UHGV virus genome: UHGV-0298370
DNA length: 19,287 nucleotides
Reading direction: 5' to 3' (one strand)
DNA from: a virus
Positions 1 through 17,139 of the stretch are shown here, piece by piece. How positions within the stretch are numbered: position 1 is the first letter of the stretch; every line of letters begins with the position of its first letter. The translations under genes were made by a program, and so were the position numbers. Below the pieces are notes generated by a model. The model was not told where the DNA came from. It made no database searches and was given only the letters and a program-made list of their open reading frames with translations.

Positions 1-237
1 CAAAACAGAGAAGAGCATCACCGGACGACGGGCTCATAACCCAATCCATCCGGGCGGCTGCCACCGCAGGTGTTCTTCTCTGTTTTGTGGAGAAACTAAC
101 CGCCCCTACGGGGGCATTTATGGAAATGTAATTGACTCAATACTGGTTGAAAATACTTAGCTGTTATGTGCCTGTCTTTTCACCACTTCAGGCTCGGTGG
201 TATCCTTTTAAGCCCGTATACATAAAAGGAAAATCAA

Positions 238-525
238 ATGACTTTTGATGAAAAAGAACTTGATAATGCAATTAATAAAATCATCGTAACGTCGCTCTTT
301 TCCTGTCTCAGCGACACTCAGCAAAAACAGTTCTACGAATCGGCTTTCAACATGATCGAGCGTTGTTGTTTCTGCGATGCCGACGAGTTACCTGAAAAAA
401 TCAGGAAACAGTTGGCTGATGCTCTTCGAGTGCGACTTTACGCGGTGAATTTATTCGTGGCTGGGATGACGGACGTGGTGTGGATGCCGGGCGACAATTA
501 TTATCTTCACAGGGGGATGCAATAA
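238..525 (+). CDS. hypothetical protein (95 aa), unknown function
   Basis: ATG at 238 preceded by AAGGA about 8 nt upstream; AT-rich 5' part; 3' part (420-525) overlaps an alternative open frame (tail-fibre-like cassette), so extent is uncertain. No recognisable family. Confidence 0.3.
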   Translation: MTFDEKELDNAINKIIVTSLFSCLSDTQQKQFYESAFNMIERCCFCDADELPEKIRKQLADALRVRLYAVNLFVAGMTDVVWMPGDNYYLHRGMQ

Positions 526-746
526 GAAATATTGAGGGATTCGCAGATGGCGGGATCGGTATGTCTTTTGATGCAATCAGAGGGGCTTTTTACGATGCAG
601 GAACACGATCAGCGAGAATGCCGAATAACACAACTACTATAGACAAAACCGATGACCTTGGATTCGACGCCTCTCGTGTCGTGCCAACAGCTAATGAAAA
701 CCGTCCACGTAACATCGCCTTTAATTATATTGTGAGGGCTGCATAA
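480..746 (+). CDS. putative orphan tail-fibre C-terminal cassette (frame open from 420, no ATG; GTG at 480); possibly a remnant
   Basis: Frame is open 420-746 after a TGA at 417-419 and ends in TAA overlapping the ATG of the following tail fibre assembly gene (TAATG at 744-748), the arrangement expected for a fibre tip followed by its chaperone. Function inferred from context only. Confidence 0.3.
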   Translation: MDAGRQLLSSQGDAIRNIEGFADGGIGMSFDAIRGAFYDAGTRSARMPNNTTTIDKTDDLGFDASRVVPTANENRPRNIAFNYIVRAA

Positions 747-1339
747 TGAAACCTGTTTTTGATGAAAATGGGCTGGCTACAGTGCCGGGTGATATGCGTT
801 GTTTTTATTATGATGCTGAAACATCTGAGTATACGGGCTGGTCTGATGAATATATTAATACTGGCGTAAGTATGCCCGCCTGTTCAACTGGTATTGACCC
901 TGGCGAAAACATTCCGGGAAAAGTGGCTGTATTTACAGGTAAGGGATGGAGCCATGAAGAGGACCATCGCAATGAGACTGTTTACTCAATCGAAAATGGC
1001 GCAGCTGTTACAGTGGATTATATCGGTGCCATCAAAAACGGTTATGTCACGCTTTCACCGTTAACGCCATATGATAAATGGGATGGTGAGAAATGGGTGA
1101 CAGATACTGAGGCACAACACGGTGCCGCAGTAGAAGCGGCAGAAGCACAGCGCCAGTCACTGATTGATGCAGCAATGGCTTCCATCAGTCTGATTCAGCT
1201 GAAATTACAGGCCGGGCGGAAGCTGACGCAGGCAGAAACCACCCGGCTTAACGCCGTGCTTGATTACATTGACGCGGTGACGGCAACAGATACGAGCACC
1301 GCTCCGGATGTCATCTGGCCTGGACTGCCGGAGGCGTAG
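746..1339 (+). CDS. tail fibre assembly protein (Tfa family), second copy convergent with gpG
   Basis: 197 aa; C-terminus ...LDYIDAVTATDTSTAPDVIWPGLPEA matches the conserved Tfa C-terminal motif and parallels the gpG-like C-terminus ...LDYLDALELVDTSSAPDIEWP on the opposite strand; GAGGG SD upstream. Confidence 0.75.
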   Translation: MKPVFDENGLATVPGDMRCFYYDAETSEYTGWSDEYINTGVSMPACSTGIDPGENIPGKVAVFTGKGWSHEEDHRNETVYSIENGAAVTVDYIGAIKNGYVTLSPLTPYDKWDGEKWVTDTEAQHGAAVEAAEAQRQSLIDAAMASISLIQLKLQAGRKLTQAETTRLNAVLDYIDAVTATDTSTAPDVIWPGLPEA

Positions 1340-1745
1340 GCCATTCAATATCTGGAGCACTGGAGGTATCAACCAGTTCCAGTGCGTCCAGATAATCCAG
1401 CCACAAATTATATTGCGCCAGTTCCTCACCTTTCAGACGACCAATAGCCGCTTTACCAGGCCATTGCTTGGTATTCATATATTCGTTGGACTGATTAATC
1501 AATTGCTGTTTTTTCAATTCGGCTGCGGCAATCTGTTCCTCATGTGTTGGTGGTGGAATTTCAGACCATGCAGGAAAACCATTTTCCCCAGCGATACGGA
1601 TTTTTCCTTTCGGCGGTAATCCGGAAAACTCAATATACACCTGCTCATCAACTTCAACAGCATCATCTGGCCATGAATTTACATTGATGTAGTCATCCTT
1701 AAGCGCAGGATTCACAAAAATATTTAAAGATGGACTAAAAAACAC
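1311..1745 (-). CDS. G: tail fibre assembly protein gpG-like
   Basis: 144 aa, GTG start at 1745 one nt after the H stop with AGGAGG SD; conserved Tfa C-terminal motif; position immediately downstream of H as in P2. Confidence 0.8.
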   Translation of the reverse strand: MFFSPSLNIFVNPALKDDYINVNSWPDDAVEVDEQVYIEFSGLPPKGKIRIAGENGFPAWSEIPPPTHEEQIAAAELKKQQLINQSNEYMNTKQWPGKAAIGRLKGEELAQYNLWLDYLDALELVDTSSAPDIEWPTPPAVQAR

Positions 1746-1746
1746 A

Positions 1747-3144
1747 TCACCCTCCTATAGCAACATAACAGCCCGATACAGGATTTGCGGCAGTCGCTAC
1801 GCTGGAAAAACCACGAAAGCCGCTTTTTGTGATTGCGGAGGCAGATAGTATTCCGGCACCCGAAGGTGTATGCCCCACGTGGCTGGCAACCATCACGTAG
1901 CACGCCGACGGAAAAGCGAAAGGGAAATTGTTTAAATATCCCGCATCATCCCCCAGACTTCCCCCAAACTGCCCCACTCCCCACTGGATAATAAGTGGTC
2001 TCCGAACGCCAGAAATAATTAATGGAATTGCTACATACCCATTCACCAACATAGCGCCGGTTGTTGCGCCAGCCAGAGCCAATTCCCCCAAACCAAGGTA
2101 TGTGAGAAGACCAGCTACATCCTTTCCACTCAAATTGGTAAGCGTATTGTCCAGCGGTTGTTTACCTGCCAGCGCATTAAGCATTGTCGTGGCAAAGTTC
2201 GGATCATTCCCCAGTGCCGCCGCCAGTTCGTTCAGTGTATCCAGTGCAGCAGGTGCAGAACCCACCATTCCTGCAATCGCCGATTTCACAAAAGCCGTAG
2301 TGGCAATCTGTGTATTGTTGACCGACTGCGCCGCCGTGGGGGCTGTTGGCGTTCCGGTGAGTGCCGGACTCGACAACGGTGCTTTTAGTGCCAGCGCATT
2401 GTTAATGGTGGTACTGAAATTCGGATCATTGTTAATGGCTGAGGCTATTTCTTTCAGCGTGTCCAGCGTGGCTGGCGCACCATTAATAAGGGCCGTCAGT
2501 GCCGCCTGTACAAACGCAGTGGTCGCAACCTGCGTGGTATTATTCCCCGCCGCTGGCGTTGGCGCTTTGGGGGTTCCGGTAAATGTCGGGCTGGCTTTTG
2601 GCGCGTACTGTGAATGCGGGTCCGGTGCGGCAAGATGTTTTGCCATCTGATCATCCGCGTACACCTTCAGCTCCAGTGCCTTGTCATCCACATACTTGCG
2701 GGTTGCCAGCACTACAGCAGGGTCGATTTTCAGGGTGATATTGTCCGTACTGCTGGTAATCAGCACCATGCGCACGGTCTGAGTGCGCCCGCTACCTTCA
2801 GCCAGTTGCGGCTTATAGCTTTCCGGGCAGTTGCCCACGGCAATCAATGCCCCGGACTCATCAAACAAGCCCACTTCACGTATCCACCAACCGCCCTCGT
2901 TTTCAGGGATCACCTGTTCGGCAATAATCTGGCTGCTGTTCTGCGGGTCGATATAAAGCATATTCAGCGCAGCCCGGCGTTTCTCATTTACCAGTGCCGT
3001 CTGCTTTGCGTCCGGCGTTGGCAATACTCCACCGCCATCGCCCACCGCCATATGGGTAATTTTTAGCGGCACACCGAGCGCGGCGGCGCTGGCAAGTTTC
3101 GCCGCGCCAATATCCGTCAGCAGGGTATAAAATTTTGTGCTCAT
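1747..3144 (-). CDS. H: tail fibre protein gpH
   Basis: 465 aa; N-terminus MSTKFYTLLTDIGAAKLA...MAVGDGGG...AVGNCPESYKPQLAEGSGR closely resembles P2 gpH N-terminal constant region; internal ATTAFV/NDPNF repeats typical of the family; ATG start, ATGA overlap with gpI. Confidence 0.9.
   Translation of the reverse strand: MSTKFYTLLTDIGAAKLASAAALGVPLKITHMAVGDGGGVLPTPDAKQTALVNEKRRAALNMLYIDPQNSSQIIAEQVIPENEGGWWIREVGLFDESGALIAVGNCPESYKPQLAEGSGRTQTVRMVLITSSTDNITLKIDPAVVLATRKYVDDKALELKVYADDQMAKHLAAPDPHSQYAPKASPTFTGTPKAPTPAAGNNTTQVATTAFVQAALTALINGAPATLDTLKEIASAINNDPNFSTTINNALALKAPLSSPALTGTPTAPTAAQSVNNTQIATTAFVKSAIAGMVGSAPAALDTLNELAAALGNDPNFATTMLNALAGKQPLDNTLTNLSGKDVAGLLTYLGLGELALAGATTGAMLVNGYVAIPLIISGVRRPLIIQWGVGQFGGSLGDDAGYLNNFPFAFPSACYVMVASHVGHTPSGAGILSASAITKSGFRGFSSVATAANPVSGCYVAIGG
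2152..2589. repeat. internal tandem duplication inside H (two ~73-codon units)
   Basis: Protein residues ~186-257 and ~258-331 repeat the pattern TGTP.APT.AA..NNTQ.ATTAFV....APA.LDTL.E.A.A..NDPNF.TT..NALA.K.PL; visible as repeated DNA blocks. Confidence 0.6.
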
Positions 3145-3746
3145 GGATTCACTCTCATTGTGTCAATAACATGGACCGCCCCGCCTTCATGCGCGGTGCC
3201 ACCGGAAATAATCGTTTCGTTGATATACGGATAGATCGTGATTTCTTCGCCAAGATAGCTGGCGGCTCCCACCCAATGCGGGCCGCTGGTCTGCAGATTG
3301 ATGGACATGCCGATCATGTGGCGGCTACATGGTTTGGCATCGCTTATCAGTCGCTCAAGTTCCAGATAGGTATCTTCAGTGATGCCCTGGTCCTGCACGC
3401 CGATATCCAGGCGAAACGTGCCCGGTGTTTCTCCGGTCTGCCACCACTCAATAATGCGGATCAGGAATCCGAACGGTTCCACCACCCGCCGCACGGCACT
3501 GGTGGTTCCTTTATGCTGATGAATATAAAAAGCATCCTTCACTACCTGGCGTTTGACGCTTTCTGTCCAGCCCTCGTCCCAGCGATCCACAGAGAACGCC
3601 CAGGCGAGATAAGGCAGGAAGCTGACCGGACAGGTAGCCGGATTCCACAAGTCACGCAGCGGCACCTGCAAATCAGAAATCCCGCTACAGGTTTGCGCAA
3701 GTCGGCGCTCCAGTGAAGTTGAACCCAGTGGCAGCAGACTATTCAT
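3141..3746 (-). CDS. I: baseplate assembly protein gpI
   Basis: 201 aa; ...LWNPATCP..LPYLAWAFSVDRWDE.W....KR.V..DA...H.HKGT..A.RRVVEP.G....I.EWW....PGTFRLDIGV...GITE..Y.E.ERLI.DAKP.SRH.IG closely matches P2 gpI; ATG start. Confidence 0.9.
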   Translation of the reverse strand: MNSLLPLGSTSLERRLAQTCSGISDLQVPLRDLWNPATCPVSFLPYLAWAFSVDRWDEGWTESVKRQVVKDAFYIHQHKGTTSAVRRVVEPFGFLIRIIEWWQTGETPGTFRLDIGVQDQGITEDTYLELERLISDAKPCSRHMIGMSINLQTSGPHWVGAASYLGEEITIYPYINETIISGGTAHEGGAVHVIDTMRVNP

Positions 3747-4647
3747 CCGTTCCTCCGTTGGTTACGCTCCACTGCGTACATGATGCCGCCTGTGTTTTGT
3801 TCAGGACCACATCCGCCAGCGGAGAAGCCAGTTCCACACGTTGAACACCCTCAACATGCAGAGCAGCAAAGATGGCGCTACGGCGAATATCCCGACCAAG
3901 CCTCGTCTGGCTGGCAATGTACTTCTGCAGACTGGCTTTTGCCGCTGCCATTACCGGCTCTGCTTCCGGTCCCGGATAGAGAAAAATGGTGGCTTCCACG
4001 CGATACGGGATGATTTCTGCACTGCGAACCGTAAGACGGTCAGCCACCGGGCGGACGTTCTCACTGTTCAGGGCTTTTTCCACCACGTCCAGCAGGTCTT
4101 TTTCTGCAGTTCCATCGCCTTCGCGGCTCAGGACAGTCAGCACCACCTCTGCAGGTGCCGGGCTGGTTGCACTGGCATCCGCCACCCGACCGTCGGCGCT
4201 TCGGGCATGAAATTCATAAGCTGCAGTTGGCCCCGCAACTGAAAGCCCCTCAAAGGCTGCAGGCACACGCAGGCGTAACGCTTCATCGCTTTCCATCACT
4301 GCTGCCACGGGCGGCACAGCGTCATTATCAGCAGGCGTCACCGTCAGGCGTTTCACGTTGTAGTTGGCAGCGATCTGGTCAAGATCGCCGCCCATCGCGT
4401 AAGCCACCATTACCGCCTGCGCGGCTTCATTAATGCGCTGGCGCAGAAGCAACTCACGGTAAGCGTTCTCCTGCAACAATTTGGTGACGGGTTCAGATTC
4501 CAGTTCCAGCGTGCGGATCACTGCTTCCTGCTCATCTTTCGGATGAAGCGCCACAAATTCTGCCTTGCGTTCGGCAAGCAGCGTCTCAAAGTCCGGCACA
4601 TCCACAATCTGCGGTGCAGGCAACTGCGAAAGGTCAATCACTGCCAT
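3739..4647 (-). CDS. J: baseplate assembly protein gpJ
   Basis: Start chosen at ATG (MAVIDLSQLPAPQIVDV...) with AGGAG SD 7 nt upstream, rather than the upstream in-frame codon of the ORF track; strong similarity to P2 gpJ throughout (…GRDIRRSAIFAALHVEGVQRVELASPLADVVLN…). Confidence 0.9.
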   Translation of the reverse strand: MAVIDLSQLPAPQIVDVPDFETLLAERKAEFVALHPKDEQEAVIRTLELESEPVTKLLQENAYRELLLRQRINEAAQAVMVAYAMGGDLDQIAANYNVKRLTVTPADNDAVPPVAAVMESDEALRLRVPAAFEGLSVAGPTAAYEFHARSADGRVADASATSPAPAEVVLTVLSREGDGTAEKDLLDVVEKALNSENVRPVADRLTVRSAEIIPYRVEATIFLYPGPEAEPVMAAAKASLQKYIASQTRLGRDIRRSAIFAALHVEGVQRVELASPLADVVLNKTQAASCTQWSVTNGGTDE

Positions 4648-4993
4648 TCTCTGCTCCTGTTGATACTGAAAGGGACACAGGCACACCGTTATTCCGCCGT
4701 CCGGTCAGCTCCACCACCATTGAACCGTCAAAATTGCTGTTAATAGTGATGGAATCCAGCGTCAGCCGTGGCTCCCAGCGACTCAGTGCAACATACACAG
4801 CCGACATGACCTGCAGGCGTAATGCCGGATTTTGTGGCTGATCTATCAGTGCAGACAGCAGGGAACCATATTCCCGGCGGGCAATACGGCTACCCTGCGG
4901 TGTCAGCAGAATGTCCCGCACCGACTGGCGCAGATGATCAATATCAGTAATGACTTTGCCGCTGGTATTGTTCATCCCGCTATAAAGCGTCAT
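4634..4993 (-). CDS. W: baseplate protein gpW (gp25-like)
   Basis: 119 aa; MTLYSGMN...ITDIDHLRQSVRDILLTPQGSRIARREYGSLL..LIDQPQNPALRLQ resembles P2 gpW; ATG start, overlaps J start. Confidence 0.9.
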   Translation of the reverse strand: MTLYSGMNNTSGKVITDIDHLRQSVRDILLTPQGSRIARREYGSLLSALIDQPQNPALRLQVMSAVYVALSRWEPRLTLDSITINSNFDGSMVVELTGRRNNGVPVSLSVSTGAENGSD

Positions 4994-5568
4994 ACCGGGC
5001 CTCCGGTTGTATCGCCGCCTTTCAGGACGCCAGTATGCTGATGCGCATCAACCACGATCCCGTTAGAACTCATCGCTCCGCCGCCCTGGGTAACGCCACC
5101 ATTGATCACCACTTCGCTGTTAATGCGCGTGCGGTCAGCCTCCAGTACAAACTCACTGGTTTTCATGGTGATGTTGTCAGCAGCCTCAATGACCATTGAT
5201 TTGATGCCCCTGACATACCAGCGCCCGGTGGCGGGTTCGTATTCAAACCAGCCACCGTCAGGATGTTCTGTCACGCAGGCATCCGCCGACGTCGACGGTG
5301 GTGCGAACTGATTCGAATAGACAGCGGGCAGCGCAAAGGCGGTTTCCAGATTGCCGCCCAGACTCAGCAGCACCACCTGCTCACCTTCCGATGGTCGCCA
5401 CCATGTACGGGCATTCCCGGCACGCAGCGTCAGCCAGCTGATCCAGTTGGTTTCAAGCTCGCCCGTTTTCACCCGGCAAAGCCAGTTTTCCCTGTCCACT
5501 TCGGTGACTACCCCTGTGCGGATCAGGTTGGTGATAAGGCGCATGATTTCGGTTAATTGTGCGTTCAT
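4990..5568 (-). CDS. V: baseplate spike/assembly protein gpV
   Basis: 192 aa; ...WLTLRAGNARTWWRPSEGEQVVLLSLGGNLETAFALPAVYS...GGAMSSNGIVVDAHQHTGV matches P2 gpV; ATG start; ATGA overlap with W. Confidence 0.9.
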   Translation of the reverse strand: MNAQLTEIMRLITNLIRTGVVTEVDRENWLCRVKTGELETNWISWLTLRAGNARTWWRPSEGEQVVLLSLGGNLETAFALPAVYSNQFAPPSTSADACVTEHPDGGWFEYEPATGRWYVRGIKSMVIEAADNITMKTSEFVLEADRTRINSEVVINGGVTQGGGAMSSNGIVVDAHQHTGVLKGGDTTGGPV

Positions 5569-5614
5569 AGGGAAAGGTTGCCATCAGGGGAAGAAAGGCG
5601 GCAGTGCTGCAACT

Positions 5615-5632
5615 TGTATCAGTGCTGATACA
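5615..5632. promoter_or_regulatory. Ogr/Delta-type late promoter activator box (TGT-N12-ACA), likely P_V
   Basis: Perfect palindromic TGTATCAGTGCTGATACA in the 68-bp S-V intergenic gap; P2-family late promoters carry TGT-N12-ACA upstream of the start site. Box centre is ~55 bp upstream of the V ATG. Confidence 0.55.
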
Positions 5633-5636
5633 AAGA

Positions 5637-6083
5637 TCACCCCGCCAGCCATTGCAGAATCATGTCGCGGGTCATTGCCTCAACATCATCATTTACACCC
5701 AGAAGGCGACGCTCTGCGTAACGCACCTCCGGTCCCTTACGACTGACGCGATCTCGCAGGCCGTAATGGTGAACGCGGGCAATGCGCTGCACCTTGCCTT
5801 CAAACTGCACGCTGGCAGAGTCGGTGCTGGCGGCAGTTTTCAGGTATTTTGTGGTGCGCAGCTTTGCAAACATCTGACGTTTGATACGGCCTTTTTTACT
5901 GCGTGCTGTTACCCGTCGCGGTTCATAGCTGCTGCCGTCAGGGTTGCGCTGCATCCTGATATTCTGCTGCTGTGTCCGGCGAAGTTCCTGCGCCAGCTGG
6001 CGCATCATGCGGCTTCTCGAGGCTGGTTCCAGATTCGCCAGCAAGGCACTCAGCCAGTCGTCCACCTTCTGCAGTTCAGCCAC
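5637..6083 (-). CDS. S: tail completion protein gpS
   Basis: 148 aa, GTG start overlapping R stop; ...QQNPDGSSYEPR...KKGRIKRQMFAKLRT.K.....AS.DSA...F.G.VQRIARVHHYGLRDRVS..GPEVRYAER.LLG resembles P2 gpS. Confidence 0.85.
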   Translation of the reverse strand: MAELQKVDDWLSALLANLEPASRSRMMRQLAQELRRTQQQNIRMQRNPDGSSYEPRRVTARSKKGRIKRQMFAKLRTTKYLKTAASTDSASVQFEGKVQRIARVHHYGLRDRVSRKGPEVRYAERRLLGVNDDVEAMTRDMILQWLAG

Positions 6084-6507
6084 GTTTCACCGTCCACATT
6101 TCTTCAGGTGCATCAGGTTCCGCTATAGCTTCAACGCTCGACACACTGCCGTCAGTGCTGACCAGCACACGTTCCGTCAGTTGCAGGTTCAGGCTGATAT
6201 CACAGACATCGTTGCGCAGAATATCCACCTCAAAGGTGAATAGCTTTTCCCGTAACGCCGGGTTATTGATGGCATCGGGCTGGTTATCCCTCAGCCACAG
6301 CAAAACCGGGGCCATCAGCAGATTCTGGTCGCCGCTGAAATCCTCAATCACCACGTTGAGGGTATAATGGTACTCCCATGACATGGAGCTGGCCCCCGTG
6401 GCAACCAGCGAACCGTTATCCACAAACAGATGCAGTTTGTCCGGGTTATTGCGGACATAAGGCACCGCTTTATTGAGGGCGTGGCGCAGGGATTGTGGTT
6501 TGTTCAC
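6076..6507 (-). CDS. R: tail completion protein gpR
   Basis: Start set at GTG (VNKPQSLRHALNKAV...) with AGGAG SD ~8 nt upstream, rather than the upstream TTG of the ORF track; P2 gpR-like (…NPDKLHLFVDNGS…). Confidence 0.8.
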   Translation of the reverse strand: MNKPQSLRHALNKAVPYVRNNPDKLHLFVDNGSLVATGASSMSWEYHYTLNVVIEDFSGDQNLLMAPVLLWLRDNQPDAINNPALREKLFTFEVDILRNDVCDISLNLQLTERVLVSTDGSVSSVEAIAEPDAPEEMWTVKRG

Positions 6508-6760
6508 TGTTTCGCTCCTGACACGCAATAATCATGTCCACTTTGTCTGCACAGACCGCCCAGGCGGCCTCCGTTTCATCCAGCAACGCATTCAGATCAC
6601 CGTTAGTGCGCGGTGCTGCCTGCTCCAGCCGACACGGCGTCACTCGCGGACAACCACTGACGGTAAGCTGCACCTCCGGTGAGTGCCGGACGTTCCCGCA
6701 GCCGGATAATGTCAGCAGGCAAAGGAGTATCAGCCCAGTGGCGTAAATCCTCGTTCTCAC
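6470..6760 (-). CDS. lysC: LysC, Rz1-like outer-membrane lipoprotein spanin
   Basis: GTG start with GAGGA SD; N-terminal signal plus lipobox LLTLSGC; begins inside lysB in a different frame and extends past it into the start of R, as lysC does in P2. Confidence 0.7.
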   Translation of the reverse strand: MRTRIYATGLILLCLLTLSGCGNVRHSPEVQLTVSGCPRVTPCRLEQAAPRTNGDLNALLDETEAAWAVCADKVDMIIACQERNSEQTTIPAPRPQ

Positions 6761-7031
6761 GTTTCAGTTCCTCGATCCGGCGTTGTCGTTGTCTCAGCTG
6801 TGCGCTGGTCTGTTCTGCTTCGGCATAGAGCCGCGCCTGCTCCCGGTTATTGGTTTCAGTCAGAATGGACAGGCTGATAAGCTGGCTGTTGCTCTTTGCC
6901 AGTGCCTGGCTTTTGCTCTGCAGCTCGTTTGCCTGCGTGCTGATGGTCTGGCTGGCATCAGCCAGCCGCCACGTCTGCCAGCCCAGCGCCGCCAGTAATA
7001 ACGCCAGCACAACCAGCAGCAACCGGTTCAT
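6603..7031 (-). CDS. lysB: LysB, Rz-like inner-membrane spanin
   Basis: 142 aa; N-terminal TMD (LLLVVLALLLAALGW) followed by long charged coiled-coil-like region; ATG start overlapping lysA stop (ATGA). Confidence 0.8.
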   Translation of the reverse strand: MNRLLLVVLALLLAALGWQTWRLADASQTISTQANELQSKSQALAKSNSQLISLSILTETNNREQARLYAEAEQTSAQLRQRQRRIEELKRENEDLRHWADTPLPADIIRLRERPALTGGAAYRQWLSASDAVSAGAGSTAH

Positions 7032-7405
7032 GCTGCTACCTGTTGCGCCATCTGATTACGGGTGATCCAGAAGGCAATAACGGTCAGTAGATAAAAGACC
7101 AGGGTAATAGCCCACCCCGTCCATGCGAGACTTACAACAATCAGCAATCGCATCACCCAACAGATAAATACGTTTTCTTTTCGGGTAATTGTCTTCAGCA
7201 AAGATGCCCTTAACTCCTGCCAGAGCGGGCCATTCTGAATTAACGCAGCCAGTGCTACCGGAATTACCGCCCATGTCAGCAAACAGGCTACCCAAACGCC
7301 GGACGCTGCCAGTACCGGAAAGATCCCCTGCGGATACACCATTGCTGCGATTAACAGCGCCATCCATAACATCAGAAACAGCCCGCTGATTAATTTCTTT
7401 TTCAT
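7028..7405 (-). CDS. lysA: LysA, lysis-timing membrane protein
   Basis: Start set at ATG (MKKKLISGLFLMLW...) with GGGAG SD; multi-TMD small protein in the P2 lysA position between K and lysB. Confidence 0.7.
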   Translation of the reverse strand: MKKKLISGLFLMLWMALLIAAMVYPQGIFPVLAASGVWVACLLTWAVIPVALAALIQNGPLWQELRASLLKTITRKENVFICWVMRLLIVVSLAWTGWAITLVFYLLTVIAFWITRNQMAQQVAA

Positions 7406-7406
7406 T

Positions 7407-7919
7407 TCAGTTTGCTCCCTGTAAACACCAGGCCATCTCCCGCGCACGGCGGTTATCCAGCCCCTGATTAAACACACCTTTTACATAAACCCAGCGCGGC
7501 AACTGTCGGCACGCATCCGCCCAGCGCCGCTGATTGAGCAATTTCACCAGCGTGGAACTACAGGCATTGCCCGTCCCCACGTTGAAGGCAAACGACACCG
7601 TAGCGTCATACACCTTCTGTGGTGGCTGTTGCTTCACACACCTTTCCAGTGCCCGCTCCACACGCAGCACGTTGGAGATCAGCCCTTCTGCTGCCTGTCG
7701 TTCCGTGATTGTTTTGCCGGGAATGACGCCCGATGTATTACCAATGCCGTCGGTCCAGACACCCGCGCTGCACTGATACGGCTGCAGACGACAGCCTTCG
7801 TAATCGGCAATCAGTTTCAGCCCCTCCACGGAGGTGTGAAGCTGCTGAAAACCCGGCAGCGTGGCAGCAATAGCCAGCACGGCCCCGACAAGGCAGCGTT
7901 TAACGATTGATGGATTCAT
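7407..7919 (-). CDS. K: endolysin gpK, P1 Lyz-type SAR lysozyme
   Basis: 170 aa; catalytic region ...DYEGCRLQPYQCSAGVWTDGIGNT... (Glu-8aa-Asp-5aa-Thr lysozyme triad pattern); N-terminal weakly hydrophobic Gly/Ala-rich segment RCLVGAVLAIAATLPGF with Cys9, plus Cys43 and Cys50 flanking the catalytic Glu41, the pattern of signal-anchor-release endolysins such as P1 Lyz. Confidence 0.9.
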   Translation of the reverse strand: MNPSIVKRCLVGAVLAIAATLPGFQQLHTSVEGLKLIADYEGCRLQPYQCSAGVWTDGIGNTSGVIPGKTITERQAAEGLISNVLRVERALERCVKQQPPQKVYDATVSFAFNVGTGNACSSTLVKLLNQRRWADACRQLPRWVYVKGVFNQGLDNRRAREMAWCLQGAN

Positions 7920-8115
7920 AGTCCTCCCGCGAGATCTGCCCGTCGCGCAGAAGCTGGTAGGCTTTGTGTTTGTAGTACCAGTTGATAGCCAGCATCAGCA
8001 CACCAATCATCAGGCCGCCCAGCGTTGAGGCATCCTTGATGGACAAATCGCCCAGCCAGGCCAGCACGACGGCGATGCAATACGTGATAAAGGCGCTGAT
8101 TCGCTCAAGCGTCAT
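7900..8115 (-). CDS. Y: holin gpY (short, two predicted TMDs; possibly pinholin-like)
   Basis: 71 aa, two hydrophobic segments (ISAFITYCIAVVLAWLG and LGGLMIGVLMLAINWYY) and charged C-terminus; located between X and K as P2 Y. Confidence 0.7.
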   Translation of the reverse strand: MTLERISAFITYCIAVVLAWLGDLSIKDASTLGGLMIGVLMLAINWYYKHKAYQLLRDGQISREDYESINR

Positions 8116-8118
8116 AAT

Positions 8119-8322
8119 TCAGTCCCATAGCTGGACGGTCTGCACGGTGGTGGTGGTCGGTATGTCCGGCAGCTCCACCTGCAGCCCGTGAGGTAAAAAG
8201 GGGCCGTATTCGGCAAGCCCCGGATTTGCCTTCAGTACCTGCTCCGTGACACCCTGCGTGCGCCCGTAATGACGCCAGCAAAGCGCGTCCACCGTGTCAT
8301 ACTGATACGCACGCACTTTCAT
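8119..8322 (-). CDS. X: tail protein gpX
   Basis: 67 aa, same length as P2 gpX; ...YGRTQGVTEQVLKANPGLAEYGPFLPHGLQVELPDI... resembles P2 X. Confidence 0.85.
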   Translation of the reverse strand: MKVRAYQYDTVDALCWRHYGRTQGVTEQVLKANPGLAEYGPFLPHGLQVELPDIPTTTTVQTVQLWD

Positions 8323-8786
8323 CAGATAAGCTCCACTGTGCAGTGCGGCGCATCCTGCACCCGGCTGATGGCCCAGCGGGCGTCACGCCACAAATCACCG
8401 CTGGCTTCCGCCAGTTCTTCGCCTCGCTTCACACCGGATGCCGTGGCGTCATAGTCCTGGTATCGTTCGTTGAGCATGGCGCGTGCCCAGCAGTAAACCG
8501 CGTTGAAATAGTGCTGAATGCGCTCACTTTTCCCGTCCAGCTGTTCCGCCGGAACCTCTGCCAGCGAGGCATACCCCAGCATCTGCTGGCGTCTGCGAAA
8601 CTCATACAGCTCTGCGTTGACCTCCGAAATTGCCGACAGGGCAACCTGCTTTAAACGCGGCTGCGTCACCGTGCCGTCAGTGCGCATGACACTGCGAAAC
8701 TCCGACAGGTCCACATCAGGCCAGAACGGCGTATTTCTGATGATTTCCGCCTGTTCCGGTGCCTGTTCTGGCGCAACAAACTTCAT
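8322..8786 (-). CDS. L: head completion/stabilisation protein gpL
   Basis: Start set at ATG (MKFVAPEQ...) with AGGAG SD ~9 nt upstream; an upstream GTG at 8849 is possible. ...IRNTPFWPDVDLSEF... and ...LWRDARWAISRVQDAPHCTV... resemble P2 gpL. Confidence 0.85.
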   Translation of the reverse strand: MKFVAPEQAPEQAEIIRNTPFWPDVDLSEFRSVMRTDGTVTQPRLKQVALSAISEVNAELYEFRRRQQMLGYASLAEVPAEQLDGKSERIQHYFNAVYCWARAMLNERYQDYDATASGVKRGEELAEASGDLWRDARWAISRVQDAPHCTVELI

Positions 8787-8881
8787 GCTGCTTTCTCCTG
8801 AAATAGAGGGCGGTGGACGGGGTTTTGATGAGGCTGTGCCTTTCGCCACCCCGTGCCGCCCGTGCGCGGGGGCACGTTCTG

Positions 8882-9532
8882 TCAGCGGCTGTCATTGCGC
8901 AGTCTGCGCTCCAGCTGCTGTTTGTCTTTTTTCACGCCACAGCGGGGATCGAGCTGTAACGCATGGTTGAGATGATTAAGGGCGGACGCCGGATTGCTTT
9001 CACTCAGGACAGCGCCAATCGCTTTATGCAGACGCGCCCGTGACTGGTCCGGCATATCCAGACCGTCTGTCAGCTCCAGCGTCTGCAGCAACAGATCGGC
9101 ATCAAAGCCGGTGGCGGCAAGCATTGCGCTCTGCGCGGCGTCTGCCATTTCCTCTGCCAGCACGGTCTGCACGTTGCGGTTACCCAGCGGCATCACCCAG
9201 CCATGACGCAGGGCATGACGCCCGATCTCCAGCGCTCCGGCATAATCTCCGGCATCAATGCGCCACAGCATCACGTACATCAGCACGTCATCCTGTTGAG
9301 CGCCTCCGGCAGCCAGGACACCCTCTGCCCAGGCGGCGTACTTCGGCAGCAGCTCCACCTTGATTTCCGCTTTTTTGACCGTGGACTGAACGCCCTTGAG
9401 ACGGCGGCGGTCTTCCGCCAGTTGCAGCAGCATCAGGTCATAGCCCGATGCGTGGCGAACACTGCCGCCCTCGCGGGCGGCCTGTTCAGCCTGAACGCGC
9501 AGGCGATGCTGCCGTGCGGGACTCAGGCTCAT
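8882..9532 (-). CDS. M: terminase endonuclease (small) subunit gpM
   Basis: 216 aa; MSLSPARQHRLRV...LLPKYAAWAEGVLAAGGAQQDDVLMYVMLWRIDAGDYAGALEIGRHAL... closely parallels P2 gpM. Confidence 0.9.
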   Translation of the reverse strand: MSLSPARQHRLRVQAEQAAREGGSVRHASGYDLMLLQLAEDRRRLKGVQSTVKKAEIKVELLPKYAAWAEGVLAAGGAQQDDVLMYVMLWRIDAGDYAGALEIGRHALRHGWVMPLGNRNVQTVLAEEMADAAQSAMLAATGFDADLLLQTLELTDGLDMPDQSRARLHKAIGAVLSESNPASALNHLNHALQLDPRCGVKKDKQQLERRLRNDSR

Positions 9533-9535
9533 GGA

Positions 9536-10594
9536 TTACGCTCCGGTTTCTGCTGCAGCGGCGCTGAAATCGCCAATCTGGATGTTTTCCACCAGTGCGG
9601 CGCAGCGGTAGTCCTCAACCACATAGGCTTCGTTAACGGATTCAAAATTTTCAATCCGGTCACGTTTCGGGTTGTCGATAACTGAACGGCGGCGGGTATC
9701 TTCCTGCCAGTAGATGGACAGGTTATCCAGACGGGTGATCAGCAGCGCATTCGGCGGGAAGAACGGCGCACGCACCGCCTGCAGGCCACCCATGCGTTTC
9801 TGACTGATGATCATATCGGCAGCCAGTTTTTCACTGTTTTCCTGCTCTTTGTTGACCAGTGGGAAATACTTGTCAGACAACAGTTCACGACCGCAAATCA
9901 CCACCAGATCGTCATCGTCCTGGTAGACCACGTCGATAAGCTCATTGACGGCATCCATCACCACGGCGTCCAGGTTGGCATATTCGCCACCTTTCCCGAC
10001 TTTCACCGCACCCGGTGTGGTTTCACCGCCCGTGGTGGTGCTGCCCATGACGTGATCCGGTGCATCTTCACGGATTTTCTGCAGCCAGCCTTTATTCACA
10101 TCCTGCAGCAGCGGGTTTTCGCTACGGTTTGAGGTTTTCGCACGCTTCACGCCGTTAAAGCCGATCATGATGCGGTCCAGTGCCTGACGTTTCACGATCG
10201 CGTCACGAATACGCACCTGGAAATCCTGAAACTTCGCCCACAGGTCCAGCTTCGCGTAGGTCAGCACCGTGTCAAAGTTGGTCTGCTCGCATTTGTATTC
10301 CACATCGACCATCAGCGTCGGATCGACAGGCTCACGCTCTTTTGCGGTGGTATCAGTGGTTCCGGCAATGGTGCTGCCAACACCCAGCCCCAGCAGCTGA
10401 CCAGACTGCTCGGTCACTGGCGTGACGTTAATCAGCGTCAGGAAAGCGGCGGATTGCTGGATCTGGTCTTCCAGCGTCTGCTGCACAGACGGCTCCACGG
10501 TGAACTTGCTGGACAGTTCTTCAACTGCCACACCGTTCAGACGCGCCAGCTGCTGCAGGTAAGCGTTAAAAGCAAAGCGGGTATTCTTCTTCAT
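9536..10594 (-). CDS. N: major capsid protein gpN
   Basis: 352 aa; MKKNTRFAFNAYLQQLARLNGV...KFTVEPSVQQTL...GFNGVKRAKTSNRSENPLLQDV...VISQKRMGGLQAV... near-collinear with P2 gpN. Confidence 0.95.
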   Translation of the reverse strand: MKKNTRFAFNAYLQQLARLNGVAVEELSSKFTVEPSVQQTLEDQIQQSAAFLTLINVTPVTEQSGQLLGLGVGSTIAGTTDTTAKEREPVDPTLMVDVEYKCEQTNFDTVLTYAKLDLWAKFQDFQVRIRDAIVKRQALDRIMIGFNGVKRAKTSNRSENPLLQDVNKGWLQKIREDAPDHVMGSTTTGGETTPGAVKVGKGGEYANLDAVVMDAVNELIDVVYQDDDDLVVICGRELLSDKYFPLVNKEQENSEKLAADMIISQKRMGGLQAVRAPFFPPNALLITRLDNLSIYWQEDTRRRSVIDNPKRDRIENFESVNEAYVVEDYRCAALVENIQIGDFSAAAAETGA

Positions 10595-10610
10595 CAGGTT
10601 TTGTGCTCCA

Positions 10611-11444
10611 TCAGCAATTGGTCAGAGTGTCAGCGGGGGCGTTACCGCCTGTTGCACGCTGGCGGTAGTCCTGGCGGCTGTCTTCATGACTCAGCTTATT
10701 CACCAGTTCGTTAAAGGCGGTCTGCTGTGCCTGCAGGGCAGTCTCCAGCTCAGACAGACGTTCTTCCTGCTCAGACAGGGATTTTTCGGTGCGTGCGCTC
10801 AGGTTCTGCTGCTCAGTGGCGACCAGCTCCACGGCCTTATGCACATCAGAGAACCGGGCGTCATCGGACTGCTCTTTTTTGGTGAACAGCGCCGTGACAC
10901 GGGCAAACAGGGACGGTTTGTCATCCTGGATTTCTTCCAGTTCGATCACCGTTTCCTCTGCAGCGGTAAAGAGATTGGCAGGATTCTGCTTGCGGTTTGC
11001 CAGCGGGTTATGGGCTGCACTGGCGCTGAATGTCAGCATTTCAGTGCCCAGACTGGCAGGGTCATCAGTGGCAGCCAGGCCGACCAGGTAGGCTTTGCCC
11101 GTATCAGCGAACTTCGGGCTGACTTCCATAGAGGTGAATAATTTCTGGCCTTTTTTCACCAGTTCCACCAGGGACTCCGTTGGCTCAACGTCGGCATACA
11201 GCGCCATCTTGCCTGCCAGCGGACCTTCCGTGATTTCTTCAGCAAACAGCGCCGTCACCTTGCCGTAGCGGTTAAAGGTGCTGTCCGGCAGATAAGACTT
11301 GATGTGCTCAAGGTTAATCAGCGCGGTATACACCGCCGGGTTGTAGCTGGCTGCCATCTGTTCCAGCCATTCACGCTGGATTTCGCGTCCGTCGGTGGTG
11401 GCACCTTCCACCCCGATGCGAAAACGCTTTGCTTTCACTGTCAT
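10611..11444 (-). CDS. O: capsid scaffolding protein gpO
   Basis: 277 aa; N-terminal protease-like region MTVKAKRFRIGVEGATTDGREI...YNPAVYTALINLEH and coiled-coil C-terminus, as P2 gpO; first gene of the leftward late operon. Confidence 0.9.
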   Translation of the reverse strand: MTVKAKRFRIGVEGATTDGREIQREWLEQMAASYNPAVYTALINLEHIKSYLPDSTFNRYGKVTALFAEEITEGPLAGKMALYADVEPTESLVELVKKGQKLFTSMEVSPKFADTGKAYLVGLAATDDPASLGTEMLTFSASAAHNPLANRKQNPANLFTAAEETVIELEEIQDDKPSLFARVTALFTKKEQSDDARFSDVHKAVELVATEQQNLSARTEKSLSEQEERLSELETALQAQQTAFNELVNKLSHEDSRQDYRQRATGGNAPADTLTNC

Positions 11445-11522
11445 GAGCCGTGCTCCGTTAGAAAAAACTTACTGGAGCCTTATGGTTGCGGTGATGGGGC
11501 CAGTGAAACAATGCGCGGTATT

Positions 11523-11540
11523 TGTACCGACAACCACACA
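11523..11540. promoter_or_regulatory. Ogr/Delta-type late promoter box (TGT-N12-ACA) in divergent O/P intergenic region
   Basis: TGTACCGACAACCACACA in the 142-bp gap between the divergent O and P starts; single perfect match found by eye. Confidence 0.5.
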
Positions 11541-11586
11541 AACCGCAGGCGGGGAAAGCCTTCATTCAAGGCTGTAGGTTTGTGCC

Positions 11587-13353
11587 ATGAACACCACACT
11601 GACACCCGCAGATCTCGATCCCCGTCGGCAGGCCATGCTGCTGTACTTTCAGGGATACCGCGTAGCCCGCATTGCTGAAATGCTGGGCGAGAAAGTTGCA
11701 ACCGTTCACAGCTGGAAAAAACGCGACAAGTGGGGTGACTATGGGCCGCTGGATCAGATGCAGCTCACCACCGCCGCACGCTACTGCCAGCTCATTATGA
11801 AGGAGCACAAAGAAGGGAAAGATTTCAAAGAAATTGACCTGCTGGCGCGCCAGTCGGAGCGCCACGCGCGGATCGGCAAGTTTAACAATGGCGGTAACGA
11901 AGCCGACTTAAACCCTAACGTCGCCAACCGCAACAAAGGCCCGCGCCGTCAGCCGGAAAAGAATGTTTTCACCGATGAACAGATTGAGAAGCTGGAAGAA
12001 ATTTTCCATTCCTCCATGTTCAACTACCAGCGCCACTGGTGGGAAGCCGGAAAAACCAACCGCATCCGCAACCTGCTGAAGTCACGCCAGATCGGCGCGA
12101 CCTTTTACTTTGCCCGTGAAGCCCTGATTGACGCCCTGCTTACCGGACGTAACCAGATTTTCCTTTCTGCCAGTAAGGCACAGGCTCACGTCTTTAAGCA
12201 GTACATCATAGACTTCGCCAAAGAAGTCGAGGTGGAGCTGAAAGGCGATCCGATGGTGCTTCCTAACGGAGCCACGCTTTACTTCCTCGGCACCAATGCC
12301 CGCACGGCCCAGAGTTATCACGGCAACCTGTATCTGGATGAATATTTCTGGATACCGAAATTCCAGGAGCTGCGCAAAGTGGCTTCCGGTATGGCTATTC
12401 ACAAAAAATGGCGACAAACCTATTTTTCCACGCCATCCAGCCTGACACACAGTGCTTATCCGTTCTGGTCCGGTGCGCTGTTCAACCGTGGGCGCAACAA
12501 GGCCGACAAGGTGGACATCGACCTGTCCCACAGCAATCTGGCCCCCGGCCTGCTGTGCGCAGACGGGCAATACCGCCAGATAGTCACCGTGGAAGATGCG
12601 GTGCGCGGCGGCTGTAACCTGTTCGACCTTGACCAGTTGCGCATGGAGTACAGCCCGGACGAATACCAGAACCTGCTGATGTGCGAGTTTGTGGACGATC
12701 TCGCGTCCGTGTTCCCGCTCAGCGAGCTGCAGGCGTGCATGGTGGACAGCTGGGAAGTCTGGACCGACTTTCATGCACTGGCTCTGCGCCCGTTTGGCTG
12801 GCGCGAAGTGTGGATCGGTTATGACCCGGCAAAAGGTACGCAAAACGGCGACAGCGCCGGATGCGTAGTGGTGGCACCGCCAGCCGTGCCTGGTGGTAAG
12901 TTCCGCATTCTTGAGCGTCACCAGTGGCGTGGGATGGACTTCCGCGCCCAGGCTGACGCCATCAAAAAACTGACCGAGCAGTACAACGTGACCTACATCG
13001 GCATCGACTCGACAGGTGTCGGCCACGGGGTTTACGAGAACGTGAAAGCGTTTTTTCCAGCCGTCCGGGAGTTTGTCTATAACCCCAATGTTAAAAACGC
13101 CCTGGTACTCAAGGCCTACGACATTATCAGCCACCGCCGTCTGGAGTTTGACGCCGGACACACCGACATAGCGCAGTCATTCATGGCAATCCGTCGCGCC
13201 ACCACCGCGAGCGGCAACCGCCCAACCTATGAAGCCAGCCGCAGCGAAGAAGCCAGCCACGCCGATCTGGCCTGGGCAACGATGCACGCACTGTTTAACG
13301 AACCGCTGCAGGGCGAATCCGCCAATACCAGCAATATTGTGGAGATTTTTTGA
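11587..13353 (+). CDS. P: terminase ATPase (large) subunit gpP
   Basis: 588 aa; N-terminus MNTTLTPADLDPRRQAMLLYFQGYRVARIAEMLGE... and body match P2 gpP; divergent from O as in P2. Confidence 0.95.
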   Translation: MNTTLTPADLDPRRQAMLLYFQGYRVARIAEMLGEKVATVHSWKKRDKWGDYGPLDQMQLTTAARYCQLIMKEHKEGKDFKEIDLLARQSERHARIGKFNNGGNEADLNPNVANRNKGPRRQPEKNVFTDEQIEKLEEIFHSSMFNYQRHWWEAGKTNRIRNLLKSRQIGATFYFAREALIDALLTGRNQIFLSASKAQAHVFKQYIIDFAKEVEVELKGDPMVLPNGATLYFLGTNARTAQSYHGNLYLDEYFWIPKFQELRKVASGMAIHKKWRQTYFSTPSSLTHSAYPFWSGALFNRGRNKADKVDIDLSHSNLAPGLLCADGQYRQIVTVEDAVRGGCNLFDLDQLRMEYSPDEYQNLLMCEFVDDLASVFPLSELQACMVDSWEVWTDFHALALRPFGWREVWIGYDPAKGTQNGDSAGCVVVAPPAVPGGKFRILERHQWRGMDFRAQADAIKKLTEQYNVTYIGIDSTGVGHGVYENVKAFFPAVREFVYNPNVKNALVLKAYDIISHRRLEFDAGHTDIAQSFMAIRRATTASGNRPTYEASRSEEASHADLAWATMHALFNEPLQGESANTSNIVEIF

Positions 13354-14060
13354 TGCCCCCAATCCCAACTAACCTCATGACTATCGCGGGACTTCCGGTG
13401 GATAGCTTTTTCTTTGCTTACCAGTATGAGTGGAACACTGGCCCAAAGAGTAGAAACCGTGTACTCACAAAAATGCGCCAGGCAGGCGCGGATTTCTTTT
13501 TTTCCTATGAAGCCCTGAACGATGCACTGCATACCGGGCGTAACCAGATTTTCCTCTGCTGCAGCACAGCATCTGCGCAGGCAATCAAAGCCTGTGTATC
13601 AGCATTCTTAAGCCAGGCCGCAGCTTATACGCACACTGGAAAAATAAAATCAGGCAAAAGTCATCTGGAGCTTCCGAATGGTGCAGTAATTTATTTTACC
13701 GACCTCAGCAGTCTCACCTCCGCACTCAGTGGAAATGTTTACGTGTCAGAGTATGCCTGGAGTGAATCACCGAGAAATATGATTGCCATCGCTAAAGGGA
13801 TTTCTATGCACGCACACTACCACGCCACCTACTACACCACTCCCAGCCCTAACCCAGAGGCACGGCAGGAATATAAAAAGCTATGCAGAAACAACAGCGT
13901 AACCAGCATGGTGTTCACCGCAGATGACGCAGCAGCATCTGGAGCAATGTTGTTTACTGATAACTGGCTGAACGATATGAAAAAAGAATTATCAGAAGAG
14001 GACTGGAAAATGCTGTTTATGTGCGAATGGCCTCTCGCTAGCAAGGAACTGGCAGAATGA
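13353..14060 (+). CDS. terminase-ATPase-like paralog (truncated, diverged copy of gpP central region)
   Basis: ATG at 13353 overlaps the P stop (TGATG) and its stop overlaps the Q start (ATGA). Protein aligns by eye to gpP residues ~140-400 (FAYQYEWNTGPKSRNR / FNYQRHWWEAGKTNRIR; EALNDALHTGRNQIFL / EALIDALLTGRNQIFL; GNVYVSEYAW / GNLYLDEYFW). A 24-nt stretch at 13532-13555 is 23/24 identical to 12141-12164 in P. Confidence 0.6.
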   Translation: MPPIPTNLMTIAGLPVDSFFFAYQYEWNTGPKSRNRVLTKMRQAGADFFFSYEALNDALHTGRNQIFLCCSTASAQAIKACVSAFLSQAAAYTHTGKIKSGKSHLELPNGAVIYFTDLSSLTSALSGNVYVSEYAWSESPRNMIAIAKGISMHAHYHATYYTTPSPNPEARQEYKKLCRNNSVTSMVFTADDAAASGAMLFTDNWLNDMKKELSEEDWKMLFMCEWPLASKELAE

Positions 14061-15085
14061 GCAAACGTAAAAACACCAAGCAGGTAACAGTTGATCACGA
14101 CACAAAACCAAGCAACGGCCCAACGGCTGAGGCTTTCAGCTTTGGTGATCCCATCCCCGTGCTGGACCGCCGCGAACTGCTGGACTATGTGGAATGCGTA
14201 CAGATGGATCGCTGGTATGAGCCGCCCGTCAGCTTTAATGGACTGGCGCGCACCTTCCGCGCCGCCGTGCATCACAGTTCCCCGATTGCAGTAAAGTGCA
14301 ACATTCTGACCAGTACCTATATCCCTCATCCGCTGCTTAGCCAGCAGGCTTTTTCGCGTTTTGTGCAGGACTATCTGGTATTTGGTAACGCCTACCTGGA
14401 GAAACGCACGAACCGCTTTGGTGAAGTTATCGCCCTTGAGCCAGCTTTGGCAAAATACACCCGACGCGGATTAGACCTGGATACCTACTGGTTTGTGCAA
14501 TACGGTATGACAGCCCAGCCGTATCAGTTCACGAAAGGCAGCATTTTTCATCTGATGGAACCGGACATCAACCAGGAGATCTACGGCCTGCCAGGTTATC
14601 TTTCTGCCATCCCGTCAGCCCTGCTCAACGAGTCCGCCACACTGTTCCGCCGTAAGTATTACATCAACGGCAGCCATGCAGGTTTCATCATGTACATGAC
14701 CGATGCCGCGCAGAACCAAGAAGATGTGAACAACCTCCGCAACGCAATGAAAAGCGCCAAAGGGCCAGGCAACTTCCGCAACCTGTTTATGTACTCTCCT
14801 AACGGCAAAAAGGACGGGCTTCAGATTATCCCGTTGTCAGAAGTCGCGGCGAAGGATGAGTTTCTGAATATCAAGAACGTGAGTCGGGACGACATGATGG
14901 CGGCACACCGTGTGCCGCCGCAAATGATGGGGATAATGCCTAATAATGTTGGGGGCTTTGGAGATGTAGAGAAGGCGAGTAAAGTATTTGTACGTAATGA
15001 ATTATTGCCATTGCAAAAAAGATTACAAGAAATAAACAATTTCATAGAAGAAGGTGTTATTGAATTCCAAGAATACCATTTCTAA
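14057..15085 (+). CDS. Q: portal protein gpQ
   Basis: 342 aa; ...EAFSFGDPIPVLDRRELLDYVECVQMDRWYEPPVSFNGLARTFRAAVHHSSPI...NESATLFRRKYYINGSHAGFIMY...NGKKDGLQIIPLSEVAAKDEF... matches P2 gpQ. Confidence 0.95.
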   Translation: MSKRKNTKQVTVDHDTKPSNGPTAEAFSFGDPIPVLDRRELLDYVECVQMDRWYEPPVSFNGLARTFRAAVHHSSPIAVKCNILTSTYIPHPLLSQQAFSRFVQDYLVFGNAYLEKRTNRFGEVIALEPALAKYTRRGLDLDTYWFVQYGMTAQPYQFTKGSIFHLMEPDINQEIYGLPGYLSAIPSALLNESATLFRRKYYINGSHAGFIMYMTDAAQNQEDVNNLRNAMKSAKGPGNFRNLFMYSPNGKKDGLQIIPLSEVAAKDEFLNIKNVSRDDMMAAHRVPPQMMGIMPNNVGGFGDVEKASKVFVRNELLPLQKRLQEINNFIEEGVIEFQEYHF

Positions 15086-15087
15086 TT

Positions 15088-15118
15088 AAAAAAAAGGGAG
15101 GCAACCTCCCTTTTTTTT
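15088..15118. terminator. bidirectional rho-independent terminator between convergent Q and cargo gene
   Basis: A8-GGGAGG-CAA-CCTCCC-T8: 6-bp GC stem, 3-nt loop, flanked by A-run and T-run so it reads as a terminator on both strands; overlaps the TAA of the minus-strand cargo gene. Confidence 0.75.
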
Positions 15119-16883: not shown

Positions 16884-16985
16884 AGTCCCTCCATAAAGAC
16901 ATCTGGTACAACTCAATGCTGGGAATAGTGCACATTTCAATGAGATAAATCCACTAATAATCTAGGATTTATGAGTTAGCGCGCG

Positions 16986-17004
16986 CTCGTATCCCCGCCA
17001 CGCC
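16986..17004 (-). other. putative cos site (cohesive-end sequence) of the P2-like phage
   Basis: Minus-strand sequence GGCGTGGCGGGGATACGAG followed by CGCGCGC resembles the P2/186 cohesive-end sequence as I recall it (P2: GGCGAGGCGGGGAAAGCAC TGCGCGC); orientation is correct, with the 5' end pointing toward Q. Depends on my recollection of the P2 cos. Confidence 0.45.
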
Positions 17005-17053
17005 TGCCCGCTTTGTGTAGTGGTTTTCATGCAGGTGCCTGATCCACGCAAAA

Positions 17054-17073
17054 GCCCGCCAGTTCTGGCGGGC
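17054..17073 (-). terminator. probable rho-independent terminator downstream of the DUF2971-like gene
   Basis: GCCCGCCAG-TT-CTGGCGGGC hairpin; on the minus strand it is followed by TTTTGCG; lies ~70 bp past the stop of the minus-strand gene 17140-18258. Confidence 0.5.
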
Positions 17074-17139
17074 CTTAGCAAAAACGATCCTCAAACGGTC
17101 ATGCAAATTCAGGCAGCATAGGCATGCACTGTTGTTAGG

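Follow-up and report, generated by a model that had tools for sequence, protein, structure and literature searches.

We analysed a 19,287-nucleotide (nt) stretch of the viral genome UHGV-0298370, referred to here as the window, whose coordinates are used throughout unless another locus is named. In the reading that we cautiously favour, positions 438–2108 are a Pin-type invertible host-range fibre segment, of the kind found in the P region of e14, which belongs to a P2-like prophage and is no longer able to invert. Its history would include an exchange with an SfV-like prophage remnant that adjoins sbcB in Escherichia coli. The segment retains a single crossover site, its spare fibre tip is truncated, and the DNA to its left is foreign both to P2 and to the switch.

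Invertases of the Din family (Gin, Cin, Pin, and Hin) are serine enzymes that recombine inverted 26-base-pair (bp) sites, swapping the C-termini of tail fibers together with their chaperones. In the intact state of the present segment, one site would have been located at the boundary between the constant and variable parts of the tail fiber H, and the other at the start (5' end) of a spare tip that has no promoter. Inversion would fuse the constant part of H to either C-terminal tip, with the cognate Tfa chaperone downstream, and only the fused tip–Tfa pair would be expressed, from the late operon. The features of the module in the window are the following (lengths in amino acids, aa; ORF, open reading frame):

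1747–3144, minus strand: H, a P2-type tail fiber of 465 aa
2096–3144, minus strand: constant N-terminal part of H (Phage_tail_fib, PF12571, E=5e-65)
1747–2095, minus strand: variable C-terminal part of H, 116 aa, the expressed tip within the invertible module (Gp53-like_C, PF21882, H residues 384–464)
2083–2108: Din/Pin-type 26-bp crossover site, the sole survivor, TTCCCCCAAACCAAGGTATGTGAGAA, encoding the LGLGE motif of H
1311–1745, minus strand: G, 144 aa, chaperone of the expressed cassette and TfaP homologue (Caudo_TAP in Pfam, E=3e-35)
746–1339, plus strand: Tfa', an ORF of 197 aa with an ATG start, the intact chaperone of the silent cassette and TfaE homologue (Caudo_TAP in Pfam, E=2e-26)
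438–746, plus strand: spare fiber-tip cassette, silent and truncated, with its C-terminal 102 codons and stop kept and its 65 N-terminal codons gone

The gene order V, W, J, I, H, G is that of annotated P2-like prophages, and the module has the Peduovirus-type composition, with a PF12571 fiber and then a Caudo_TAP chaperone after V-W-J-I. An exact look-up of the 465-aa H protein returned complete switches only; among them is a complete P2-like prophage on a contig from ENA (L006). The variable part of H shares 40% identity with residues 97–169 of K-12 StfP. The crossover site at 2083–2108 marks the boundary between the two parts of H, with the constant N-terminus fused at the site to one of two tips, the second of which is truncated. 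In L006, the H-side site has the same 26 bp; in L003, a P2-like prophage of E. coli MFDS1019527, the H-side site, which pairs with an invertase-side partner, deviates at 1 nt. The window sequence crosses the H-side site without a break. A scan of both strands of the whole window (19,287 bases) with seven observed sites found no second crossover site, the next-best 26-mer having 9 of 26 mismatches, a chance level also reached in shuffled sequence; instead of two inverted flanking sites there is only one. With one site and no invertase in cis, the segment is fixed, and its state would be that of H, carrying the gp53-like tip, followed by G, both intact. H and G are presumably expressed from the P2 late operon.

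G and Tfa' are convergent (minus and plus strand, respectively), and each tip has its own chaperone downstream, as expected of a Din/Pin-type segment. Their 3' ends overlap by 29 bp (1311–1339), exactly as do those of tfaP and tfaE in K-12 e14. Tfa' is 63% identical to K-12 TfaE, and G is 58% identical to K-12 TfaP. G is annotated in L003 and in L001, an e14-like prophage of E. coli BE2-5. A search of the PDB with Tfa' gave no match, and the exact Tfa' protein was found only in two tiny contigs that hold the segment.

The frame of the spare tip is open from 420 to the TAA at 744–746; it contains no ATG and ends in a TAATG overlap with the start of Tfa'. Positions 420–436 are unrelated SfV-like DNA read in another frame. 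The protein fragment is identical to residues 66–167 of the annotated spare tip of L003 and matches residues 66–178 of K-12 StfE' (45% identity, E=7e-22) as well as residues 201–303 of a 'short tail fiber' in the PDB (9cuy, E=3.5e-15). Judged by these alignments, its similarity to fiber tips is far beyond chance. In L001, the DNA corresponding to 438–746 encodes the C-terminus of an expressed 251-aa fiber. The fragment has no match in Pfam; the Collar domain (PF07484) spans residues 24–71 of the 167-aa L003 spare tip, and together with the 65 missing codons the window copy has lost the start, the crossover site and all but ~6 Collar residues. Searching the whole window with tblastn for the missing 65 codons gave no match (E>=1). 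The tip fragment would not be translatable as a fiber, and Tfa', although intact, would be silent or just incidentally transcribed.

A preliminary description of the interval 238–1745, made from the sequence alone, had noted the convergent, overlapping Tfa pair and the ATG-less frame with its TAATG overlap, and both are present as described. It had placed the start of the frame at 420; the frame is indeed open from there, but the fiber homology begins only at 437/438. Its proposal that the product is a fiber tip, which a lack of similarity to fiber C-terminal domains would have contradicted, agrees with the L003, StfE' and 9cuy matches. It had also reported neither an invertase ORF nor a pair of Din-family sites. 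No invertase is encoded in the window, and there is no site pair, but the intact site inside H, outside that interval, had been missed, and the left flank had not been recognised as foreign to P2.

Complete switches are found in the closest relatives of this prophage. L003 is 97.6% identical to the window over 437–5581, and L006 is 99.84% identical over 732–13144. In both, the order is H, G, Tfa', a spare tip of 167 or 164 aa, the gene of a 188-aa recombinase and finally the sheath gene FI. The switch itself takes up the interval from G to FI, a gene absent from the window. The 188-aa invertase of these relatives consists of Resolvase and HTH_7 domains and is 87% identical to PinE, and its gene is present in L003, L006 and SKA5. 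In L003, the inverted site pair comprises TTTTCATAAACGTTGGTTTGGGAGAA (4832–4857, at the 5' end of the spare tip) and TTCCCCCAAACCAAGGTATGCGAGAA (6647–6672, inside H); in L006, it comprises 11037–11062 and 12843–12868. The partner site expected for the window copy has the sequence TTCTCCCAAACCAACGTTTATGAAAA. Inversion of such fiber loci in P2-like prophages has been shown experimentally as phase variation in E. coli E2348/69 (Goldberg et al. 2014; PMC4272514).

These relatives also define where the missing parts should be. In intact relatives, the second site lies inside the frame of the spare tip, ~145–170 bp upstream of the equivalent of 437, and the start codon of the invertase lies ~30 bp beyond. 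Given an offset of 4564 between L003 and the window, the L003 site at 4832–4857 corresponds to 268–293 and the invertase start at 4776 to ~212, so that both would fall inside the window. The homology of the window to every switch-bearing relative starts at 437, and a tblastn search of the whole 19.3 kilobases (kb) with the 188-aa L003/L006 invertase gave a best E of 1.0; no adjacent invertase is present.

The DNA found where the invertase gene, the second site and the 5' portion of the spare tip would be is SfV-like. Its closest matches are SfV-like prophage remnants adjoining sbcB in E. coli (L002 and L007–L012) and an intact SfV-like prophage (L005):

1–142: SfV-like lambdoid early-region DNA, 100% identical to the reverse complement of L002 5653–5794 and to L005 5001–5142; neither P2 nor switch
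143–439, plus strand: DNA of the SfV orf33 region, 100% identical to L002, L007–L012 and L005 4794–4498, and 99.7% identical to phage SfV, between orf32 and orf33
238–525, plus strand: chimeric ORF of 95 aa with an ATG start, made of 67 codons of an 81-aa SfV-region ORF and 28 out-of-frame tip codons
437–439: deletion junction with a 3-bp microhomology (TTT); the match to L005 ends at 439, those to L001 and L003 begin at 437, and L002 is identical across

The native ORF behind the chimera (81 aa, L005 4454–4699) had its last 14 residues swapped for the 28 tip codons. The 95-aa product belongs to no Pfam family. The exact protein occurs in 5177 index blocks of public assemblies, and every context that was read is the sbcB remnant, which has the order int ... 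yfdR, orf33', tip', Tfa, hypothetical gene, dacD. Thousands of E. coli assemblies share this chimera without change, and their remnant also keeps a 197-aa Tfa gene intact. Parts of a query covering 1–460 match 2784 of 5426 complete E. coli genomes. The undeleted ancestor type of the remnant is represented by the SfV-like prophage of strain 1217KP (L023), where the fiber and Tfa genes lie outside any invertible segment.

The leftmost part of the window carries a second rearrangement. Positions 1–142 are inverted relative to every comparator, including phage SfV, in all of which the reverse complement of 1–142 is followed by 206–207 bp and then by 143 onward. The resulting 142/143 junction bears no Din-like site and was absent from every collection searched, namely the 5426 complete E. 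coli genomes, GTDB representatives, JGI metagenomes and IMG/VR. The breakpoint lies in the loop of a 13-nt imperfect hairpin. We also observed that the missing 206 bp and a few flanking bases match the small RNA family STnc100 of Rfam (minus strand, L002 5793–6016 region; full-length model, 42.3 bits against a gathering threshold of 47, E=1e-7), of which about the first 16 nt are left in the window (143–158). An Rfam scan of 1–2200 gave no match, and promoter and terminator scans of the same interval gave counts no higher than in shuffled sequence.

The layout had correctly been read in the preliminary description as an invertible segment of the Mu G, P1 C or e14 P type, and three explanations had been offered for its incompleteness. 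A frozen remnant is the one that fits a single site, a truncated tip and 19.3 kb devoid of an invertase. An intact switch, with the invertase and the second site just beyond the window start, is extremely improbable. Just ~440 bp upstream of the tip fragment are in view, and Pin-family invertases can work in trans, as PinQ does on the e14 P segment (PMC12529663). However, the stretch that holds the second site in every intact relative is deleted here and SfV-like DNA is found instead; both missing parts were expected within the window; and no second site exists in its 19.3 kb. With the Collar domain lost, the tip would also be predicted to be non-functional even if fused. Trans-acting Pin enzymes are left no local partner by the lone site.

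The remaining proposal, an alternative module at the Z/fun position of P2, was right in that the switch occupies the interval between G and FI in such P2-like prophages. It does not hold for an independently expressed second fiber. We consider it very unlikely that the module is non-inverting, separately expressed cargo at the Z/fun hotspot, even though P2 carries Z/fun in the interval downstream of G, the Tfa' ORF is intact, and a promoter-like match and an orf33-derived ORF lie upstream. Against this, the tip frame has no start codon, its first 65 codons are absent, and it includes no constant part for a shaft or for attachment to the baseplate; its DNA is 99.9% identical to segments that are bounded by crossover sites and flanked by an invertase; and promoter-like matches are no more frequent than in shuffled sequence.

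The locked segment of the P2-like prophage has a counterpart in another phage type. Over window positions 437–2096, L001 is 99.88% identical, with 2 mismatches, at 479 and 1323, and the match stops at the central AA of the 2083–2108 site. In L001, the segment has the opposite orientation relative to the invertase-side half-site CGTTTATGAAAA, and the gp53-like tip is the silent cassette, beside a truncated recombinase pseudogene. The inner half-sites (TTCYCCCAAACC) move together with the segment, whereas the outer ones remain with the surrounding DNA. Because the match is bounded by the site and the fusion is the opposite one, L001 holds the same segment with the same bounding sites in opposite orientation in another phage type. 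The opposite orientations, an indirect sign of inversion, are seen in different genomes, L001 on the one hand and the window and L003 on the other. The interior of the segment also occurs alone as a contig in two draft assemblies, of 1785 bp (L013) or 1176 bp.

Several related loci are themselves rearranged. L001 5555–7849 has both sites and a recombinase reduced to a 123-bp pseudogene fragment, and is another locked copy; the same BE2-5 genome also holds an sbcB remnant that is 100% identical to window 1–142 and 143–460. In a P2-like prophage of E. coli AR_0013 (L004 2959–7820), the constant part of H runs directly into the middle of the sheath gene, and there is an inverted block that contains the two tip cassettes, the invertase gene and the 5' half of the sheath gene. 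Both H and the sheath gene FI appear to have been destroyed by an aberrant, large inversion that reached from the H-side site into FI. Decayed switches are common, as the L001 pseudogene and the scrambled L004 illustrate. On the metagenome contig OBUX01000547.1 (L018), two inverted copies of the same tip type (7500–7812, plus strand, and 9440–9752, minus strand), ~1.6 kb apart, are 97.8% identical to window 433–746; this may be a switch with near-identical tips in both cassettes.

Nucleotide comparison with the sbcB remnant locates the change of partner within the spare tip. Relative to L002, the window has 0 mismatches over 143–559 and 46 over 560–1306, and the homology ends at 1322. Relative to L001 and L003, the tip differs at position 479 alone, and there the window agrees with the remnant. 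On these alignments the exchange point is between 437 and 559, and most likely within 480–559. The deletion junction of the window is nucleotide-identical to that of the remnant and cannot arise twice; the window therefore joins the left side of the remnant to the silent cassette of a P2-like or e14-like switch. We lean towards the view that this hybrid reflects a real event in a cell. Homologous exchange would have taken place between the silent cassette of a P2 prophage and an sbcB remnant carrying a ~95%-identical tip'–Tfa pair, and it would have parted H, G and Tfa' from the invertase and from the sheath-to-D tail genes.

Several points weigh against a cellular origin of the hybrid. Neither the join of remnant to P2 nor the 142/143 junction occurs in any other sequence of the collections named above. 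The remnant and the switch share an identical stretch of just 80–123 bp, and stretches this short can be joined wrongly in short-read assembly. The base at 479 is only partly diagnostic, since the same 101-bp string occurs in untruncated tips on 5 metagenome contigs. We had considered the base at 479 as proof of crossover, and this argument is weakened by that 101-bp string. Exact-pattern scans for the hybrid string 420–570 or 470–570 in GTDB representatives, JGI metagenomes and IMG/VR returned only those 5 contigs. The reciprocal recombinant, represented by an artificial query of invertase, site and 5' tip followed by remnant Tfa and right flank, was found in none of the 5426 genomes. One long match to this query (L023) was rejected, being an intact SfV-like prophage with a non-invertible fiber and not the reciprocal product.

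It is possible, if clearly less probable, that the hybrid is an assembly chimera, in which the true genome has an ordinary sbcB remnant and a P2-like prophage with a complete active switch, mis-joined through 437/480–559. The exact shared stretch of 80–123 bp, bounded by 437 or 479 and by 560, would allow it. Draft assemblies do break in and around the module (L012 stops within the tip, and L013 and L014 are contigs of the segment alone), the hybrid is absent from the 5426 finished genomes, and E. coli BE2-5 has all the pieces at separate loci with 99.9–100% identity. In contrast, the 142/143 junction shares no k-mer with the canonical arrangement, which excludes a de Bruijn mis-join there and suggests that the locus was really rearranged in the source strain. 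The sequence is also unbroken through the H-side site, as expected for a population with a single orientation. Should the join be chimeric, a normal, complete switch probably exists in the true genome; the given sequence encodes a locked switch under either origin. A real hybrid could also have formed when a whole circular phage integrated into the remnant, or through a chromosomal inversion between prophages, which we regard as improbable. In that case, the invertase gene and the partner site would remain on the far side of the prophage or of the chromosome, with the inverted orientation to the site in H preserved, and Pin-type recombination, including that by PinE or PinQ in trans, would flip an arc of at least 30 kb and not the 1.8-kb cassette.

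For annotation, fiber specificity in the window should be treated as fixed, with H carrying the gp53-like tip. Tfa' and the tip fragment are remnants of a Pin-type switch, not a second fiber, and the 95-aa ORF is a chimera created by a deletion. A real join would mean that the P2-like prophage is cut off from its sheath-to-D tail genes and probably defective, and that an incoming or resident phage had recombined with a conserved prophage remnant as its target. An artefact would be a warning that ~100 bp of identity between fiber cassettes of different prophages can mis-join contigs.

Two further observations concern genes away from the fiber module. Between the terminase gene P (11587–13353) and the portal gene Q (14057–15085), a 236-aa ORF with a TTG start (13350–14060, plus strand) is 31.5% identical to the ATPase domain of P (residues 142–368) and matches Terminase_6N in Pfam (E=4e-16). 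By homology, the P-Q operon seems to contain an additional gene that resembles the terminase ATPase. Past the portal gene, where P2 has its old/tin hotspot, cargo genes on the minus strand (15117–18258) encode a 607-aa protein of the AIPR family (abortive infection; PF10592, E=7e-35) and a 372-aa protein with a borderline match to DUF2971. The same cargo pair is present in four complete E. coli genomes at 99.7% identity.

Among known systems, the e14 P region of K-12 (stfP-tfaP / tfaE-stfE'-pinE) shares with the window a constant fiber part, a crossover site encoding GLGE, a tip with its Tfa, and a convergent Tfa with a promoterless tip. All four cassette products are homologous, at 40–63% identity. 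Unlike e14, the window has a constant part of the P2-type H (PF12571) and not of the e14/Mu type, and it has neither an invertase nor a second site, its spare tip being shorter by 65 codons. The invertible loci of P2-like prophages (E2348/69, L003 and L006) share the phage backbone and the location, with G on one side and FI, the sheath gene, on the other. They are complete, and that of E2348/69 inverts, whereas the window copy is truncated and joined to non-P2 DNA. We take Fels-2 Fin to be a comparable invertible fiber locus of a P2-like prophage. The G segment of Mu with Gin and the C segment of P1 with Cin belong to the same class of mechanism, in different phages and with different tips.

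The sbcB remnant has in common with the window the junction between orf33' and tip', the 95-aa chimera and the order tip'–Tfa, and is 100% identical over 143–559. It differs in that its tip'–Tfa pair is ~5% divergent from 560 onward and ends at 1322 in unrelated DNA, and in that it has no G, H or crossover site. The module of the window is thus a known kind of system in a degraded state, and its sole specific novelty is a candidate one, the hybrid junction with the sbcB remnant.

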